Source: a virus. Taken from it: a stretch of 64,000 nt of DNA. The DNA lies in the IMG/VR virus record IMGVR_UViG_3300013014_001174, positions 14,220 to 78,219 of that record; one strand, written 5' to 3'. Below are positions 2,492-47,064 of the stretch, piece by piece (the stretch's first letter is position 1; each line of letters starts with the position of its first letter). Made by a program: the position numbers and the translations under genes. The notes beneath the pieces are model-generated. The model saw only the letters and a program-made list of their open reading frames with translations, had not been told where the DNA came from and did not search any database.

Positions 2492-4037
2492 AAGAATAAT
2501 TCTTCCTGGTAAGGTTTTAGATAATGTTGATCCGTTAATGTTGGGTAGAGTAAGAATTGAACCACAAACAAAACTTGAAAATCAGTCAGTACCAACAAAA
2601 CCAGATGGTTCACCGAAATCAGTTGGTGATTATGCTTGGACTTCAGAAGACCCATTTATCTTTATTCCGTTATTACCTTATTATGTTAATCAAGTTCCAG
2701 AAGTTGGTGAATACGTTAATATTATTTATTCAACAAGAGTTGAACCTTTATCAAATAATAAATTTTATGTTCAGGGCCCTTTAAGTAGACCTTGGAACAA
2801 CGAAAGAGAAACATTCTTAAACGCCCAATCAGTTTTAGATAATGGGACATCAATTCAAAAAAGTTACGAACCTAGAAATAGTAGTACTGGTGTTGTACAA
2901 GAGATTGTAAAAGATATATACCCATTGCCTGGTGATAACGCACTTTTAAGTCGAGGCACTACTGATGTTGTTTTAAAGAAAAATGATGTTTTACTAAGGG
3001 CTGGTAAATATAGAAAAATAGTTGTAGAACAATCAAGTGGTGTTGGTGAAATTACACAACCAGATGTAACACCATACGATAAAAGATCTTTCTTACAATT
3101 ATCAATATTTGACCAAGAATTGGTAGATGTTGGTACCGAAACTTATGATATAACAAAGTTTGTTGATAAAGATGTAAAAAACTTTGTTGAATGGGATATT
3201 TCAAATGTTAACCTTACTGCAGATACTGTTGATGGTTACGTACAAGTAAGTACTGTAAAAAATGTTACAACATCTAATTTTGGGTTTAATACTGGCACTA
3301 CCGTAAATTGCAATTTAATCCCTAATTCAAAATATGTGTTTACTGGATTAAGTGTTGAGGATTCCATTATTTTTATTAATACGTATATTAGAGGTTTTAA
3401 TAAAGGTTTTATCAATATTGATGGTTATAACAAATACCCAAATTCTGGAAATTTAATAGGACAATTTCCTTTTGTTTTTGGTCCAAGTATTTCAACCAAC
3501 ACAAAAATATTAAACACAAGTCCAAGTCTAACAATAGATTTTGTGGAAAATAATGTGGTAATTAACATTTATAACAAAATAAAACTTTTTGACTCAAGTG
3601 ACCAACCAGGTTTTGCCGTTATTTGGGATTATAATAGGGTTGGTCCACAGACAATCAAAAGCTCAACAGATATTGAAAGAGCAGAATATAAAGATAATCC
3701 AGTTACTTATGCAACAATGGGTGGTGACTTCCTTTATCTCCTTACTCACCAAACAACTGATGATAAATTTACAATCGATTTAAAAAACACTTTATATGGT
3801 ATTGACCAACCAACATTTACAGATTATTTAAAAGATAGAACAAATTCTATGGTTAGAGGTGAAGAGTTATATAATCTATTAGATAAACTAATAAGATGGA
3901 TATCAGGACATGTTCATAACCCAGTTGACGCACCTTGTTATCTATCTGGTGAAGGTGAAAATAGTGTTAGTCTAGACGACATAAAAAAAGAATTAAACTC
4001 AAAAAGATTTTTAAATCCAAATATTCGAATTAATTGA
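2481..4037 (+). CDS. baseplate hub/central spike protein (T4 gp5/VgrG-like)
   Basis: N-terminal DPLMLGRVRI OB-fold motif; C-terminal HVH spike metal-binding motif. Confidence 0.65.
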   Translation: MQDKRIILPGKVLDNVDPLMLGRVRIEPQTKLENQSVPTKPDGSPKSVGDYAWTSEDPFIFIPLLPYYVNQVPEVGEYVNIIYSTRVEPLSNNKFYVQGPLSRPWNNERETFLNAQSVLDNGTSIQKSYEPRNSSTGVVQEIVKDIYPLPGDNALLSRGTTDVVLKKNDVLLRAGKYRKIVVEQSSGVGEITQPDVTPYDKRSFLQLSIFDQELVDVGTETYDITKFVDKDVKNFVEWDISNVNLTADTVDGYVQVSTVKNVTTSNFGFNTGTTVNCNLIPNSKYVFTGLSVEDSIIFINTYIRGFNKGFINIDGYNKYPNSGNLIGQFPFVFGPSISTNTKILNTSPSLTIDFVENNVVINIYNKIKLFDSSDQPGFAVIWDYNRVGPQTIKSSTDIERAEYKDNPVTYATMGGDFLYLLTHQTTDDKFTIDLKNTLYGIDQPTFTDYLKDRTNSMVRGEELYNLLDKLIRWISGHVHNPVDAPCYLSGEGENSVSLDDIKKELNSKRFLNPNIRIN

Positions 4038-33894: not shown

Positions 33895-34953
33895 TTACAA
33901 AAGTTTTTTTAATATTTTTCTAATACTTTCAAATAGTTCTGGATGGTGTAACTGAAGGTTTAAGTCTTCAAGATTATCCACAGATCTTTCTTCACGTTTA
34001 TTACCACCATGTTTAAATATGTCAAAAAATAACTTACTATTTGGTTTAAAATTATGAAACATTATATCCATATTTTTTTCTGGTAATCTTATGTATTTAT
34101 TAAATCCACCAATACTCATAACTTTTTCATACATTTTATTATATTCTTCATAATCAAAATTTCCAAGTTCCTCTTCAACTTCTTCCAACATCTTTTCAAG
34201 ATTTCTGGTTACCTCTTTTTGAAAAGACTCATCCTCATAATCATCACACCAAGAATTATATTCTAGTTCGTTCCAGTCGCCAACACTATTATTTGAATAG
34301 TTTTCTATTAGTAATTTTAACATACCTTTTAAATCCTCGTCTTCAGCATTTAACATTTTATATAAGTTTAATAAAATATTTACACTTGTTTGGAATTTGT
34401 AACCGTGTCGTATTTGCACAATACCAAAATTTATAAATGGGTTGTTAGTTTCACCTACTAACGTTTTTGAAATCGCCCTTTCAATACATTCTTCGTTATA
34501 CCTACCGTATTCGTATATAATGTCATCACATTCGTCATCAAAATTATTTTTTAAAAATTCTGAAATTTTAGCATTATCATTATTATCATTATTAGGGACT
34601 ATTTGTAATGTTGGATTTGTTAGACTTAAAATTTTATTAGCAAGTGTGATATTTTCATCCTTAAACGAATCAATGATATAACCCTCTTTCCAATCTTCGT
34701 CATACCTCCACCGATCAAAATCGTAACTACCATAACTAGAGTTTACGTACCTACTCCAAACCCAAATATCAGTATCATCAGTAACACCAAGAATTTCAAG
34801 AAAATCATCATCATTATCAAAGGTAATTTCAATTTTTGGCGATCTGCCTTTTGAGTATGAAACATCATATATTAGTTTGTCAGGATAAGACCATCTATTA
34901 ACTTCTTCTCCTTTAGCAATTTTTTTTAAAAATTCGTATGTTTCACTTGCCAT
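33895..34953 (-). CDS. hypothetical protein
   Basis: 352-aa ORF. Confidence 0.6.
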   Translation of the reverse strand: MASETYEFLKKIAKGEEVNRWSYPDKLIYDVSYSKGRSPKIEITFDNDDDFLEILGVTDDTDIWVWSRYVNSSYGSYDFDRWRYDEDWKEGYIIDSFKDENITLANKILSLTNPTLQIVPNNDNNDNAKISEFLKNNFDDECDDIIYEYGRYNEECIERAISKTLVGETNNPFINFGIVQIRHGYKFQTSVNILLNLYKMLNAEDEDLKGMLKLLIENYSNNSVGDWNELEYNSWCDDYEDESFQKEVTRNLEKMLEEVEEELGNFDYEEYNKMYEKVMSIGGFNKYIRLPEKNMDIMFHNFKPNSKLFFDIFKHGGNKREERSVDNLEDLNLQLHHPELFESIRKILKKLL

Positions 34954-35018
34954 ATTAAATAAATATAATTATATTTGTATTTATATATAGTTCTTTGATA
35001 ATAGTCATTTAGATATAT

Positions 35019-35426
35019 GGGCCTATATCGGATTTGACGGGCGTTGGTTGAATAATAGAAGCATGTCGGGACTGAATTAATCTCGTTAAAAACTGATTCA
35101 CAAAACAACTGGCAATGTGCTAAACAAAATGGAAACTCTTGGTTTACTAAGAGGTTCTGAAGTTACTGTAGCTTAAGAAGTTTACGGAAACGCGAGCCGG
35201 TTCACATACGCTCAGGAACAGAAGTGACTAAGGTGGACCAAGACTGAACCCGAAATCGAGTCTTCCATTGGTTGTTAATTTACGATGGTGAAGAACAAAT
35301 TAACTTTGTTTTTGGTCAAATTAAAACCAAATATTTTGGGGTATTAGAAAATACCAACCTAAACATGTAGTTGTCTCTTAAACAAGACGAACCGGACGAG
35401 GGAGTCGGAGCCCTCTAGGTCCACCA
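35019..35426 (+). ncRNA. ssrA: tmRNA; tag ORF 35111-35176 (A)GNVLNKMETLGLLRGSEVTVA*
   Basis: GGGCCTA/TAGGTCC-A-CCA acceptor with G3.U; GGATTTGAC 5' motif; ACAACTGGC resume context; upstream TATATTTG promoter. Confidence 0.9.
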
Positions 35427-35773: not shown

Positions 35774-36650
35774 AAGGTTGAGATTACACCTGTAATTGAG
35801 AATCTTTTGAAGTATTATTGTTTCCCTTCGTATCCACTTTCTTTTGGAAAGTATTTCTCAGTGACGGTCTTTTAGGTTTACCACTCCTTGAGGTTTGAAT
35901 TACTCTCATCTTACTTGACTCTTTCCGAGGTTGCCACCCCAGTTCGTCCTTGCGGGACTAAAGGTTTTTCGGATAATTACACTCAGACTTGGGATCCTTG
36001 TGTGCAATGAACGGCTCATTACTATGTAGTCACCTTTCATCCAAACCTGACAGACACTTTTCCATTATTATTTTAGGTTTTACATCCATATGTAATAAAT
36101 GTTGTGTTGTGGATTATCAAAGTAGTGGTCTGCCAACCGAGCCAAGTCGTCTTTTGAACAACCCGATACTCAACTACTCTGTGAAATGTCCCCATCTCCA
36201 TATTTCTAGACTACTTCGAGATCGAACCCTTGGTAGGGGACGGTCAAGGTTAATAACAGCACCACCTGTACGTTAACATACCTTTCGGTTTTAAGTATCC
36301 TATGATACTGGAATACGCAATAATAAAATTGGATAACTCTATTTTTTGCATAATTCCTACGGGTTATTCCTATTGGTGTTCCCACCTCAACTAGACGACC
36401 CACATCGCCTATTCACTTAACCACTTTCCCTACAGCGTCGCCCTCGGTACTAAAGATTAAACGGTATCCCGCTTGTGTACTTGACCTCACTTTCGTAAGA
36501 CGCAAATAAGTTAACACAACTTACTCACTTTATCCTGGTTTCCCAGTTTATTTTATGGACTATACACGGCCCAATATCTTTATCAGTTTCATTACTTACT
36601 CCTGAACGGATAATCTATTTTTTCAAAGAACGATTTCGGACGTTTCCGAT
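35774..36650 (-). ncRNA. large structured ncRNA, GOLLD-like candidate
   Basis: GC-elevated and free of credible ORFs; several GNRA-capped hairpins on the minus strand; own promoter and boxA-like motif. Confidence 0.65.
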
Positions 36651-42133: not shown

Positions 42134-42214
42134 TACTGATGGTTGGATTCGAACCAACGTTTTAAACTTACCGCTACAGGCATAGACGATATAAGCGTCC
42201 ACTGGTACATCAGC
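42134..42214 (-). tRNA. D-armless tRNA-Ile(TAT)-like RNA
   Basis: GCTGATG/CATCAGT acceptor; GGACG-CTTATAT-CGTCT arm; canonical T-arm; no D-arm; long extra region. Confidence 0.5.
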
Positions 42215-42293
42215 GTAATCGTCAGTCTCTCCTGACCGTCACCCCTAACCCACAGGTATTACCCGTATCGTAGTAAAGCTTGGTTTGCTATAG

Positions 42294-42365
42294 TAGCGTG
42301 TCGTGGATTTGAACCACCCCGTAGACGTTATGAGCGTCCCATGCAACCAATTACACCTTCACGCG
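42294..42365 (-). tRNA. tRNA-Met(CAT), somewhat degenerate
   Basis: GGACG-CTCATAA-CGTCT; C1 mismatch; overlaps end of HNH gene. Confidence 0.7.
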
Positions 42366-43004: not shown

Positions 43005-43110
43005 TAGTCAAAGAAGGATTCGAACCTTCACGGAATAAGTGTAATAGTTACCTTATTCCAAGGAGTTTTGAGTATTATCTCCCAGCGTCTGCCAATTCCG
43101 CCACTTGACT
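43005..43110 (-). tRNA. tRNA-Leu(CAA)-like with expanded anticodon loop and long variable arm
   Basis: Leu-type D arm GGCGGAATTGGCAGACGC; GGAG-ATAATACTCAAAA-CTCC; canonical T-arm. Confidence 0.6.
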
Positions 43111-43647: not shown

Positions 43648-43694
43648 AAGACAAAAGTATAAATAATTTTTTAATTATCAAAATTTCAAAGAAC

Positions 43695-43824
43695 AAAAAA
43701 ACCCACCTCTTTTGGAGATGGGTTTCAAAATTTATTATGCATTAATTTATCATACCATCTCCTTATAGGAACAATCCTCAGCTATCGCCAATCCGCCTAA
43801 TAATATGATATGTAAATTTTTCAT
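43695..43824 (-). promoter_or_regulatory. attenuator 2: 24-aa leader (43750-43824) plus terminator (43695-43725)
   Basis: MKNLHIILLGGLAIAEDCSYKEMV*; leader GGAGATGG complementary to terminator arm CCATCTCC. Confidence 0.65.
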
Positions 43825-44362: not shown

Positions 44363-44416
44363 ATCAACATTTTAATATAAATATAACAGTATACAAAAAA
44401 AAACAATAAAGTTTTG

Positions 44417-44496
44417 TACCCCCGGAGAGACTCGAACTCTCACACCCTTCGGCACTGGTGTCTAAAACCAGCATGTCTGCATTCCATCACAGGGGC
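44417..44496 (-). tRNA. tRNA-Leu(TAG)
   Basis: type II cloverleaf. Confidence 0.85.
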
Positions 44497-44505
44497 ATTT
44501 ATTTG

Positions 44506-44577
44506 AGGACCTAATTGGAATCAAACCAATCTAACCGGTTTTGCAGACCGGCACCTAAATCTCTCGGCCATAGGTCC
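44506..44577 (-). tRNA. tRNA-Cys(GCA)
   Basis: cloverleaf with U discriminator. Confidence 0.85.
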
Positions 44578-44582
44578 TTATA

Positions 44583-45038
44583 TTAACGGCAGTGATGATC
44601 TGCCGCTTTTGTTGCAATTTGATTGTCAGGTTTAATATTTGTTTTATAACCCAACGACGTTGCCCACCCAACAACAGGTTGAACCAATTTTGAACTGAAA
44701 TGTTTTTCTTGACTATTATAATCTAAATCAATCTCAACTATCACCTTCACTTTCTGGGTTAACCATTCGGCAACCTCAATTGAATAATCGGCCTCATTCC
44801 AAAGACGTGTCCATTTGTCTTTAATTTTTTTCACTTTCTGTTTATGTAGTATGTAGTGAACACCACGATTTCCATACCGGTATGCAATAACCGTAACATA
44901 AATTGTACTTCTTCTGTGATTTTGTGAATCTGTACCAATGTGGACCTCAACCCAGGGACATTCTTTCAGAACATCTAAGGTATGTTTTACCACATCAGGA
45001 ATTGTTTCACCGTTAACCGTTCTAAATACTCTGTTCAT
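44583..45038 (-). CDS. RNase H-like YkuK (DUF458) family protein
   Basis: IGTDSQ, RLWNEA..S, ATKAADH motifs. Confidence 0.75.
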   Translation of the reverse strand: MNRVFRTVNGETIPDVVKHTLDVLKECPWVEVHIGTDSQNHRRSTIYVTVIAYRYGNRGVHYILHKQKVKKIKDKWTRLWNEADYSIEVAEWLTQKVKVIVEIDLDYNSQEKHFSSKLVQPVVGWATSLGYKTNIKPDNQIATKAADHHCR

Positions 45039-45055
45039 TATTTCTATTTATTTTG

Positions 45056-45128
45056 TGGACAGGGAGGGTGTCGAACCCCCGACTCCAGGATCTTCAATCC
45101 TGAGCTCTACCAACTGAGCTACCTGTCC
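45056..45128 (-). tRNA. tRNA-Phe(GAA)
   Basis: canonical cloverleaf. Confidence 0.9.
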
Positions 45129-45132
45129 AGTG

Positions 45133-45213
45133 TGGAAGTGGTAGGGGTCGAACCTACACGCCTTTCGGACTTGATTTACAGTCAAGCGAGCCAGCCAAAT
45201 GCTCAACACTTCC
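45133..45213 (-). tRNA. tRNA-Tyr(GTA)
   Basis: type II cloverleaf. Confidence 0.88.
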
Positions 45214-45223
45214 TTATTATTTG

Positions 45224-45297
45224 TACACTCTACAGGGGTCGAACCTGTGACCTTTTGCGTATCAGACAAACGCTACTACCATCTGAGCTAAGAGTGT
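45224..45297 (-). tRNA. tRNA-Ile(GAT)
   Basis: canonical cloverleaf. Confidence 0.9.
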
Positions 45298-45367
45298 GTT
45301 TTAGTTTCTTGGAACGAAGATAACCATTTTTTGGTAATTATCGTTCTTTTTTACTAAATTTTTTTTG

Positions 45368-45438
45368 TTCCCCCGGACGGTAACGCTCCGACTTCTTTCC
45401 GTTAAAAGCGGAAAGCTTCACTTTAAAGCTTCGAGGGA
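45368..45438 (-). tRNA. tRNA-Lys(TTT) with atypical D and T loops
   Basis: TTCCG-CTTTTAA-CGGAA; T-loop AGCGTTA. Confidence 0.65.
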
Positions 45439-45497
45439 TTCTGTTTGTCATACTTGTCACTTTCCATAACACTTGTTTTTATTTGTTTATTTATTAG

Positions 45498-45568
45498 TCG
45501 AATGTGTACGAATCGAACGTCTCCCGAATGTCCCAAACATCCTGTGCAACCATTACACCACACACTCG
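45498..45568 (-). tRNA. tRNA-Pro(TGG)
   Basis: cloverleaf with C1-G72. Confidence 0.8.
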
Positions 45569-45583
45569 TTATTTTTTTTTTTG

Positions 45584-45668
45584 CTACGGGGGGAGGGATC
45601 GAACCTCCAATGGTAATTTACCTCCAGGGTCAAAACCTGGTGACTTTGCCTAATTCGTCTACCCCGCA
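45584..45668 (-). tRNA. tRNA-Gln(TTG) with long variable region
   Basis: U1-A72; CCAGG-TTTTGAC-CCTGG; extra GGTAAATTACC hairpin. Confidence 0.8.
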
Positions 45669-45676
45669 ATTTACAG

Positions 45677-45760
45677 AGGAGAGATGAGGTGTCGATCCCC
45701 ATACCTTTCAGTACCAACCGTTTTCAAGACGGTGTCACAAGCCGTTGTGATTATCTCTCC
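45677..45760 (-). tRNA. tRNA-Ser(TGA)
   Basis: type II cloverleaf. Confidence 0.82.
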
Positions 45761-45800
45761 TTTTATGAAACCAATATGTCAAAGAACTTTTTCTTTTTTG

Positions 45801-45873
45801 AGGTTCCTATCAGGGTCGAACTGATGACTCCGGGTTACAAAGCCGGGATATTACCAAACTATACTAAGGAACC
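45801..45873 (-). tRNA. tRNA-Thr(TGT)
   Basis: cloverleaf; loop TTTGTAA. Confidence 0.82.
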
Positions 45874-45887
45874 AAATTTTTGGGTAT

Positions 45888-46060
45888 AAAAAAACCCGAA
45901 CTGTTTTGAGTCCGGGTCTTATATTCCTTTTTATTTTTGTTAATCTTTATCAACTCATAAATGAAAACGCCCTAATATGCGACTTAAACGTAAGATACAC
46001 GTTAAACGACCACTGAATGCTCGGATTACAAATGTTCATATGTTTATTAGTTGTTTTCAT
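45888..46060 (-). promoter_or_regulatory. attenuator 1: 36-aa leader (45950-46060) plus terminator (45888-45918)
   Basis: MKTTNKHMNICNPSIQWSFNVYLTFKSHIRAFSFMS*; ACCCGGACT/AGTTCGGGT hairpin and T-run 14 nt before tRNA-Thr. Confidence 0.7.
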
Positions 46061-46113
46061 TTTTTGTTTTGTTATAAATATACTGTTATTACTAAAAGTT
46101 TTAATTTCTGTTA

Positions 46114-46144
46114 CAAAGATAGGTTATTTTTTTTAATTGACAAG
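46114..46144 (-). promoter_or_regulatory. Bacteroidota-type promoter of leader 1/tRNA operon
   Basis: CTTG, 19 nt, TATCTTTG; TATTTATA motif also at 46073-46080. Confidence 0.75.
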
Positions 46145-46894: not shown

Positions 46895-46989
46895 AGATAT
46901 AAATATCTTGAAGGTATGAAAAATAATCTTCAGAGTTTATAAATTCATTGTGTATTTGTTCAAATATATCTTCCATACTATTTTTTTAG

Positions 46990-47064
46990 TGATCCCGGAA
47001 GGATTTGAACCTTCAACCCTCGCCTTAGAAGGGCGATGCTCTAATCCAATTGAGCTACGGGACC
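46990..47064 (-). tRNA. tRNA-Arg(TCT)
   Basis: canonical cloverleaf. Confidence 0.9.

Follow-up and report, generated by a model that had tools for sequence, protein, structure and literature searches.

Leader-peptide attenuators of amino-acid operons include trpL, hisL, leuL and pheL, together with the multivalent thr and ilvGMEDA leaders. The late gate of phage lambda, PR′–6S RNA–tR′, comprises a strong promoter, a leader transcript of ~200 nucleotides (nt) and a terminator to be overcome. The pheL attenuator is treated in PMC3082878, and in Actinobacteria the attenuator formed by the upstream open reading frame (uORF) of whiB7/wblC responds to depletion of amino acids, transfer RNAs (tRNAs) or synthetases, with ribosome stalling leading to antitermination (PMC10274678). 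The Anabaena trn operon, a long tRNA array, is induced under translational stress (PMC8421152, PMC10272220). Phage tRNA arrays have been viewed as a counter to host tRNA cleavage and to decay of the translation apparatus (PMC10264068, PMC11555353, PMC11464382). Here we analyse a 64-kb part (hereafter the window) of the 78-kb virus record IMGVR_UViG_3300013014_001174 from IMG/VR, with ~30% G+C, in which a promoter, a short leader open reading frame (ORF) and an intrinsic terminator stand directly ahead of a tRNA array. We consider it probable that this cassette belongs to a family of ribosome-dependent transcription attenuators heading the tRNA operons of giant Bacteroidota phages. The reading is built on the observed architecture, selection on the leader frame, covariation of the terminator, lineage-specific antiterminator complementarity and a match between leader and array; the direction of the switch and the signal that it senses we infer. 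Our literature search found no publication on a leader-peptide attenuator for tRNA genes, and such trp-type control would be new to the published literature, the principle of attenuation itself being known.

The cassette, hereafter cassette 1, lies entirely on the minus strand. Starting from its 5′ end, promoter P1 (46114–46143) is of the Bacteroidota type, TTG (46143–46141)-N19-TATCTTTG (46121–46114), recognized by sequence and motif scan and kept in relatives; the scan also places the P1 motif, TTG-N17–21-TAnnTTTG, ahead of many genes of the window. Alignments reveal a strongly conserved stretch next (46071–46104), with a second −7-like box, TATATTTA (46082–46075). This box may be a second promoter, P2, because distant family members have only that promoter box: in the distant cassettes L141, L193 and L184, TTG-N19/20-TATATTT(G/A) is found immediately 5′ of the ATG as the sole promoter box there. 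The leader ORF of 36 codons (MKTTNKHMNICNPSIQWSFNVYLTFKSHIRAFSFMS; 45950–46060) extends from an ATG at 46060 to a TGA stop at 45952–45950, backed by a second stop, TAA, at 45949–45947. A small hairpin spanning the stop codon, GUUGAU-AAAG-AUUAAC (45939–45954), has modest support from one pair changed on both sides (UA to AU, 5 sequences). The intrinsic terminator (45888–45917), supported by covariation, consists of a hairpin at 45917–45894 with stem ACCCGGACU/AGUUCGGGU and loop CAAAAC, followed by U7 at 45894–45888. After a gap of 14 nt comes the first tRNA gene, tRNA-Thr(UGU) (45800–45873), called by ARAGORN and Rfam; a scan with the Bacteroidota consensus finds no TTG-N-TAnnTTTG promoter between the terminator and the tRNAs. 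The coordinates of promoter, 36-codon uORF, terminator, gap and tRNA block on the minus strand all hold as given in the original prediction, a reading of this DNA from its letters alone that proposed a leader-peptide attenuator at this place. Nine of the ten array tRNAs that it listed are called by ARAGORN (Thr, Gln, Pro, Lys, Ile, Tyr, Phe, Cys and Leu), as is tRNA-Arg(UCU) at 46989–47064, upstream of the cassette. The tenth, a tRNA-Ser(UGA)-like gene on the minus strand (45677–45760) with a GGAGAGA/TCTCTCC acceptor stem and a CTTGAAA anticodon loop, was read by eye only; ARAGORN and Rfam call no Ser(UGA) anywhere in the window, and in relatives Ser(tga) is called at the place equivalent to 45760–45677.

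Relatives were fetched through the RNase H-like gene (PF04308) embedded in the array, which gave 65 related loci, and two pattern scans added more. The leader region is recognizable in most of the 65 loci at 66–92% nucleotide identity, in ~40 unique variants, and in every relative of this family the cassette stands directly ahead of a tRNA array, as the original prediction had proposed to check. More distant cassettes encode unrelated peptides in an unchanged layout. Among 37 unique main-family sequences, frame 0 contains no stop sites, compared with 9 and 18 polymorphic ones in frames 1 and 2; the contrast holds for group A, the window's own, taken alone (0 versus 3 and 9) and is also present within groups B and C separately. 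The ATG and the position of the stop are kept among variants, and insertions and deletions are multiples of three within the ORF and not in its flanks. Because frame-0 stops are absent and length changes come in threes, the leader frame is, on this comparative evidence, under selection, as a translated leader ORF would be. With the frame open in 37/37 main-family variants, the lack of conservation that the original prediction named as one possible undoing did not appear.

The peptide behaves differently from the frame. Variable columns at codon positions 1, 2 and 3 number 26, 25 and 23, without an excess at the third position. The ratio of nonsynonymous to synonymous substitution rates (dN/dS) is ~0.4 within groups (0.39) and about 1 between them (range to 1.2), as against 0.05 in the neighbouring gene, and the synonymous rate is 0.2–0.6 in the leader versus 1.0–1.9 in that gene. 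Neither the purifying selection on amino acids nor the gene-like codon usage of a conventional small protein was found. Since the frame is kept while the peptide evolves almost neutrally, the pattern is the sequence signature of a regulatory leader, in which translation and the nucleotide sequence would matter rather than the protein. A small functional protein was considered separately and rejected on the dN/dS and codon-position tests.

The terminator is a constant element of the family, with four stem pairs covarying among relatives and 99% of cells paired. Lineage by lineage, we compared the last 11 ORF codons with the region of the terminator 5′ arm, deriving z scores from shuffles. The predicted duplex has a free energy (dG) of −18 to −24 kcal/mol in group C and L078 (z −4.6 to −6.4), −22.0 kcal/mol in L099 (z −4.7), −19.5 kcal/mol in L258 (z −3.9), −17.1 kcal/mol in L193 (z −3.1) and −14.2 kcal/mol in L184 (z −1.2), and is moderate in group B (−11.5 to −15.9 kcal/mol, z −1.3 to −3.2). 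As a control, 19 ordinary gene-end terminators in the same genomes have a mean dG of −5.7 and a minimum of −8.8, and none reaches z <= −3. In L141 the strand sits farther upstream, at codons 21–23 (pair probability 0.99). The terminator sequences differ between these lineages, and in a swap matrix each terminator pairs best with the ORF end of its own lineage; L141 is the exception, its strand falling outside the region tested. As long as the 3′ arm has not been made, pairing between the 5′ arm and the distal ORF has a predicted probability of about 1.0, L141 included. In a scan with a ribosome mask, pairing is abolished only by a footprint over the last third of the ORF; in this model, which ignores steric block, the values for a ribosome at the stop codon carry no meaning if the footprint has already moved past strand 2. 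By these predictions the family carries the classical 2:3 antiterminator of a leader-peptide attenuator, in a position where a ribosome could mask it.

The window contains a second cassette of the same design (43686–43824, minus strand), recognized by its sequence and its relatives. Its 24-codon ORF (43824–43750) includes, in the last codons (GGAGAUGG), the antiterminator strand GGAGATGG (43762–43755), whose partner strand CCATCTCC (CCAUCUCC) lies in the 5′ arm (43721–43714) of a terminator at 43726–43698 that ends in U7; a boxA-like GTTCTTTGA follows immediately (43694–43686). In this cassette the last ORF codons are exactly complementary to the 5′ arm over 8 base pairs (bp), with a dG of −15.1 in the window. 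Cassette 2 is conserved in 31 unique relatives, its frame is open in 31/31, and a compensatory change converts AUG/CCAUCUCC to AGG/CCCUCUC. As judged from this complementarity, the window phage carries one cassette with an intact predicted antiterminator, cassette 2.

Cassette 1 of the window is of a different quality. At the place that pairs with the 5′ arm in groups B and C, comparison with these groups reveals a remnant, in two pieces, of the antiterminator strand: AGUCG...GGGC (45969–45984, minus strand), which mimics the 3′ arm of the terminator. The remnant is broken by 8 unpaired nt in group A, and its predicted pairing in the window is negligible. According to duplex and folding predictions, the best remaining 5′-arm partner is UGAGUU (45952–45957, minus strand), facing GGACUCA at 45913–45907. 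This is the antiterminator proposed in the original prediction; it can form, with 4–6 bp and a dG of −6.6 kcal/mol, at z +1.0 relative to shuffles and with a pair probability of 0.6–0.7 for only four loop-proximal nt, and its partner varies uncompensated in the closest relatives (ACUAA, ACCCA, deletions). As far as the folding models go, cassette 1 of the window probably works weakly or terminates most transcripts, so that expression would depend on leak-through. Translation would still matter in group A, because the frame is still selected there. What stands of the original attenuator reading is the conserved leader with its terminator and, in the family, the predicted antiterminator; for the window's own copy a significant antiterminator is missing.

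The composition of the leaders follows the arrays behind them. The consensus array between the two cassettes comprises C, F, H, I, K, L, N, P, Q, R, T, V, W and Y, and leader 1 covers 14/14 of these amino acids in 16/17 variants (P 0.0165 versus shuffled ORFs and 0.0006 versus gene windows), with Cys and Val coming from different positions in different groups. Behind cassette 2 the consensus array is D, E, G, L and M; these five residues abound in the cassette 2 peptide, matching the tRNAs after it in relatives. The peptide covers 4–5/5, and leader 1 is without D, E and G. In the window, leaders 1 and 2 are complementary with respect to arrays 1 and 2 (2 × 2 table, Fisher p 0.019). Distant lineages cover 20/20 (P 0.021), 14/14 (P<0.00025) and 18/19 (P 0.11) of their amino acids, and the coverage P values combine by Fisher's method to about 1e-5. 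The match between leader and array at the level of amino acids thus has statistical support.

Beyond the first tRNA, the operon carries the boxA-like element GTTCTTTGACATATTGG (45771–45787, minus strand), identical to the boxA of the Bacteroidota rrn 16S–23S spacer and invariant in relatives. Most genomes with the 17-mer GTTCTTTGANATATTGG are those of Bacteroidota; of 122 genomic occurrences, 50 lie in the 16S–23S spacer of Bacteroidota, 257–861 nt after the 16S 3′ end, and 2 before 16S. In AGUUCUUUGACA, 9/12 positions agree with the E. coli rrn boxA UGCUCUUUAACA, a NusB–NusE site derived here from the description in PMC3177189, and position 9 is G, as in Aquifex; by analogy, GUUCUUUGACA is a putative NusB–NusE site of the phage operon. 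The exact boxA motif of the window occurs for the most part in genomes of Sphingobacteriia and Chitinophagia (Pedobacter, Mucilaginibacter, Chitinophaga and others), which suggests a host among the Bacteroidota that need not be Flavobacterium. The core GTTCTTTGA occurs five times in the window versus 1.1 expected (at 34990, 36623, 42852, 43686 and 45779): after tRNA-Thr (45787–45779), past the cassette 2 terminator, ahead of transfer-messenger RNA (tmRNA), ahead of GOLLD and inside an HNH endonuclease gene. As opposed to the rrn boxA, the phage copy lies inside a tRNA operon, behind the attenuator or the first tRNA, and also ahead of tmRNA and GOLLD; from this placement, the phage seems to set host rrn antitermination signals before its stable RNAs. 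For tmRNA and GOLLD the boxA directly follows the promoter, whereas L184 and L193 have the ORF first, then the terminator, boxA and the tRNAs. The module of ORF and terminator looks like an insert between the promoter and the boxA of a tRNA operon, which fits a gate better than an unrelated mini-gene.

These elements can be joined in the following scheme. A host-type promoter would start the transcript, the first 27–46 codons of which would be translated. Within its last third the ORF holds, in most lineages, a segment with predicted complementarity to the 5′ arm of the following terminator. If the ribosome lags or stalls early, the segment would pair with the arm, the terminator could not form and polymerase would read on, pass the rrn-type boxA and enter the tRNA genes. 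A ribosome that arrives at the leader's end in time would cover or block the segment, the terminator would form and transcription would stop. The leader peptide would not be a functional protein; its amino-acid content would sample the amino acids of the array, and slow decoding of many kinds of codon could open the gate. A more specific version of the scheme is plausible but tentative. In it, the leaders close a feedback loop: they would be stocked with the amino acids of their own tRNA block, so that shortage of or damage to any such tRNA, for example by host anticodon nucleases, would stall the pioneer ribosome and open the terminator, and the rrn-type boxA would load the host antitermination machinery for the whole stable-RNA operon.

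Several results weigh against an attenuator. When run on 26 family sequences, full and truncated, RNAalifold predicts the terminator alone, which we attribute to registers that differ between lineages and to group A, which is without an antiterminator. In group C the antiterminator is conserved, yet no pair of it is changed on both sides in a fixed register, in which 89% of cells are paired versus 30–59% when the register is slid. The terminator fold always wins thermodynamically, so the switch would have to be kinetic. The stop codon lies 21–36 nt ahead of the stem, as at ordinary gene ends, and a helix between the start codon and the end of the ORF, AAAUGAAAAC:GUUUUCAUUU, is compatible with the sequence and shows no both-sided change, hence is unproven. 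In group A the cassette 1 antiterminator is at chance level, and L041 of that group has no 5′-arm partner at all; when the leader of the window is masked, as the original prediction had suggested for its last part, no ribosome position yields a clear switch in cassette 1. The tRNAs for Val, Asn, His and Trp have been lost from the window array, and its leader retains N five times, H twice, W and V; identical leaders precede different arrays, and the leader is unchanged when arrays lose tRNAs. The covariation of leader codons with anticodons that the original prediction had proposed to look for is thus absent within a lineage, and the leader is, from these comparisons, a tracer of its lineage's consensus array, not of each genome's current tRNA set. 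Lake and river metatranscriptome contigs cover the leader, two of them bridging the junction between terminator and tRNA; these RNA-library contigs are uninformative on transcript ends, strand, level and translation, and may reflect DNA carry-over.

Other explanations have to be weighed against a ribosome-dependent attenuator. One is that the window's own copy is a working sensor, as originally predicted, with the ribosome slowed at G-ending wobble codons for each array tRNA and with UUUAUGAGUU:GACUCAAAA as the antiterminator. All the listed wobble codons, including AGG for Arg, are present in the leader (11/11), a coverage seen in 0.015% of nucleotide-shuffled ORFs; ACG is kept in 24/24 and CCG in 23/24 variants, though both are fourfold degenerate, and the UGAGUU pairing is the best that the 5′ arm can find in the window. 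The G-ending codons are rare in phage genes, as had been assumed (within-amino-acid share 0.04–0.12), and the 10/36 rare codons of the leader would be unusual for a gene (P 0.002). Their number is not informative, however: shuffled leaders have a mean of 9.3, the other two frames 11 and 8, and spurious ORFs are alike. Constraint on the nucleotides at all codon positions alone explains the conserved G-ending codons, the leader has Watson–Crick codons for Thr, Ser and Lys as well, and the weak UGAGUU pairing varies without compensation, as described above. Mirroring of the array by wobble codons specifically does not survive these comparisons, the match at the amino-acid level alone being supported, and we give a wobble sensor in this copy a slim chance. 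Rare-codon enrichment as a signal in its own right was rejected, as it equals non-genic composition; elsewhere in the family, part of the NCG excess stems from complementarity to CCCG-type terminator arms.

Alternatively, the tRNAs could be made by constitutive leak through the terminator of an autonomous tiny transcription unit upstream, with no sensing involved. The distance from stop to terminator, which is typical of gene ends, the lack of a significant antiterminator in group A and the dN/dS of 0.39 within groups are what such a unit would show. We regard it as unlikely, if with a small but real chance, in view of an architecture that is conserved between lineages where the peptide is not, of antiterminator complementarity that is found in six lineages and absent at ordinary terminators, and of leaders whose composition tracks the array; moreover, this phage's other stable RNAs have a promoter and then boxA directly, so that ORF and terminator appear as an insert. 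An antitermination factor acting on the promoter-proximal region, after the manner of lambda PR′–6S–tR′ with Q, a NusG paralogue or the Nus system, would make translation of the leader incidental. Such a factor-dependent leader is quite improbable, as boxA comes after the terminator, the open frame is strongly selected and the antiterminator strand lies inside the ORF, despite the tandem −7-like boxes, the very conserved promoter-proximal stretch and the rrn-type boxA in the operon that would suit it. Very improbable, finally, is a structured non-coding RNA, a stable RNA made together with the tRNAs, as reportedly in T4, with an ORF by chance: constraint at all codon positions and a single-sequence fold at z −2.7 are in its favour, but there is no conserved structure beyond the terminator and no Rfam family, and the frame is conserved with length changes in threes.

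Some related cassettes are of interest in themselves. In L087 (5690–5890), a paralogous cassette has lost its first ATG (ATA) and keeps the frame from a second ATG (28 codons), together with the ...AFSFIS end, the terminator and a downstream tRNA-Thr. In L216 (~2500–2830, minus strand of the locus), a 36-codon ORF with 19 different amino acids and a terminator is followed by no tRNA within the next 500 nt, and by two tRNA-Cys within ~1.2 kb; this copy may have been displaced or wired in another way. Each independent leader lineage (the main family, L141, L099, L184, L193, L258 and L216) has at least one Trp codon, Trp being otherwise rare, and that of the window is TGG at 46012–46010. This constant Trp may have to do with coverage of tRNA-Trp alone, or may mark a pause or a feature of the peptide that is conserved.

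The remainder of the gated array, from ARAGORN (44416–45668, minus strand), runs Gln, Pro, Lys, Ile, Tyr, Phe, an RNase H-like gene, Cys and Leu. The tRNA-Gln(UUG) called by ARAGORN (45583–45668, minus strand) spans 86 nt and has its anticodon at position 36, a class-II-like length that is unusual for Gln. The RNase H-like gene inside the array (PF04308, DUF458/YkuK-type, E 3e-25; 44583–45038, minus strand) is 67–99% identical across 65 related viral contigs, with a dN/dS of 0.05, and its product may act on tRNA or other RNA. Farther along, an HNH endonuclease gene (PF13391; 42328–42921, minus strand) lies amid weak or atypical tRNA-like matches at 42134–42365 and 43005–43110, scoring 26–34 bits against Rfam tRNA, one of them 106 nt long. 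A full-length GOLLD RNA (Rfam RF02032, 315.6 bits) is located at 35775–36181 on the minus strand, and upstream of it are a host-type promoter (36690–36660), a small hairpin and GTTCTTTGA (36631–36623). A phage tmRNA (RF00023, 78.1 bits) occupies 35019–35426 on the plus strand, preceded by a promoter (34947–34977) and GTTCTTTGA (34990–34998). Related contigs are as large as 270–300 kb, so the window is a fragment of a giant phage. A nucleotide search of a phage collection returned tRNA matches only and no relatives. No Rfam family spans the cassette; Thr_leader (RF00506) scores 22.7 bits versus a cut-off of 55 (E 0.88) and matches the terminator only.

If the ribosome-dependent attenuator reading is correct, the phage makes its tRNAs on demand, by means of a leader that reads decoding speed over many amino acids, and trp-type attenuation extends from enzyme genes to the supply of tRNA. 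The cassette would then be a natural sensor, small in size, of the integrity of tRNA pools in Bacteroidota, and the family holds natural variants with strong, moderate and weak antiterminators. That the boxA of the operon is identical to the one in the host rrn spacer suggests that, for its tRNAs, tmRNA and GOLLD, the phage also makes use of the machinery of rRNA antitermination.

Among described systems, the lambda late gate uses the Q protein and is without a translated leader or an RNA antiterminator, unlike the phage cassette. The attenuators of amino-acid operons are closer: they likewise combine a short promoter-proximal ORF with a terminator and with an alternative pairing of the 5′ arm that is hidden once a ribosome stands at the ORF end, and in both the peptide would be unimportant and the codon content the sensor. 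Those attenuators regulate biosynthetic enzymes through runs of a single residue, whereas the phage cassette precedes tRNA genes, has one or a few codons each for 14–20 amino acids and is followed by an rrn-type boxA; there is no sequence homology. They also possess a 1:2 anti-antiterminator, none being demonstrated in the phage cassette. Similar to the phage cassette, whiB7/wblC pairs a uORF with a terminator, answers to many translation stresses and varies in sequence between species while keeping its composition; its uORF is enriched in alanine and controls a bacterial transcription factor for stress and drug resistance, where the phage cassette would control tRNA supply with many amino acids. 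In the Anabaena trn operon an accessory tRNA array is likewise kept low and induced when translation is impaired; there the control is by a transcriptional repressor, TrcR, on a cellular megaplasmid (PMC10272220), and in the phage it would be by a leader peptide and a terminator.

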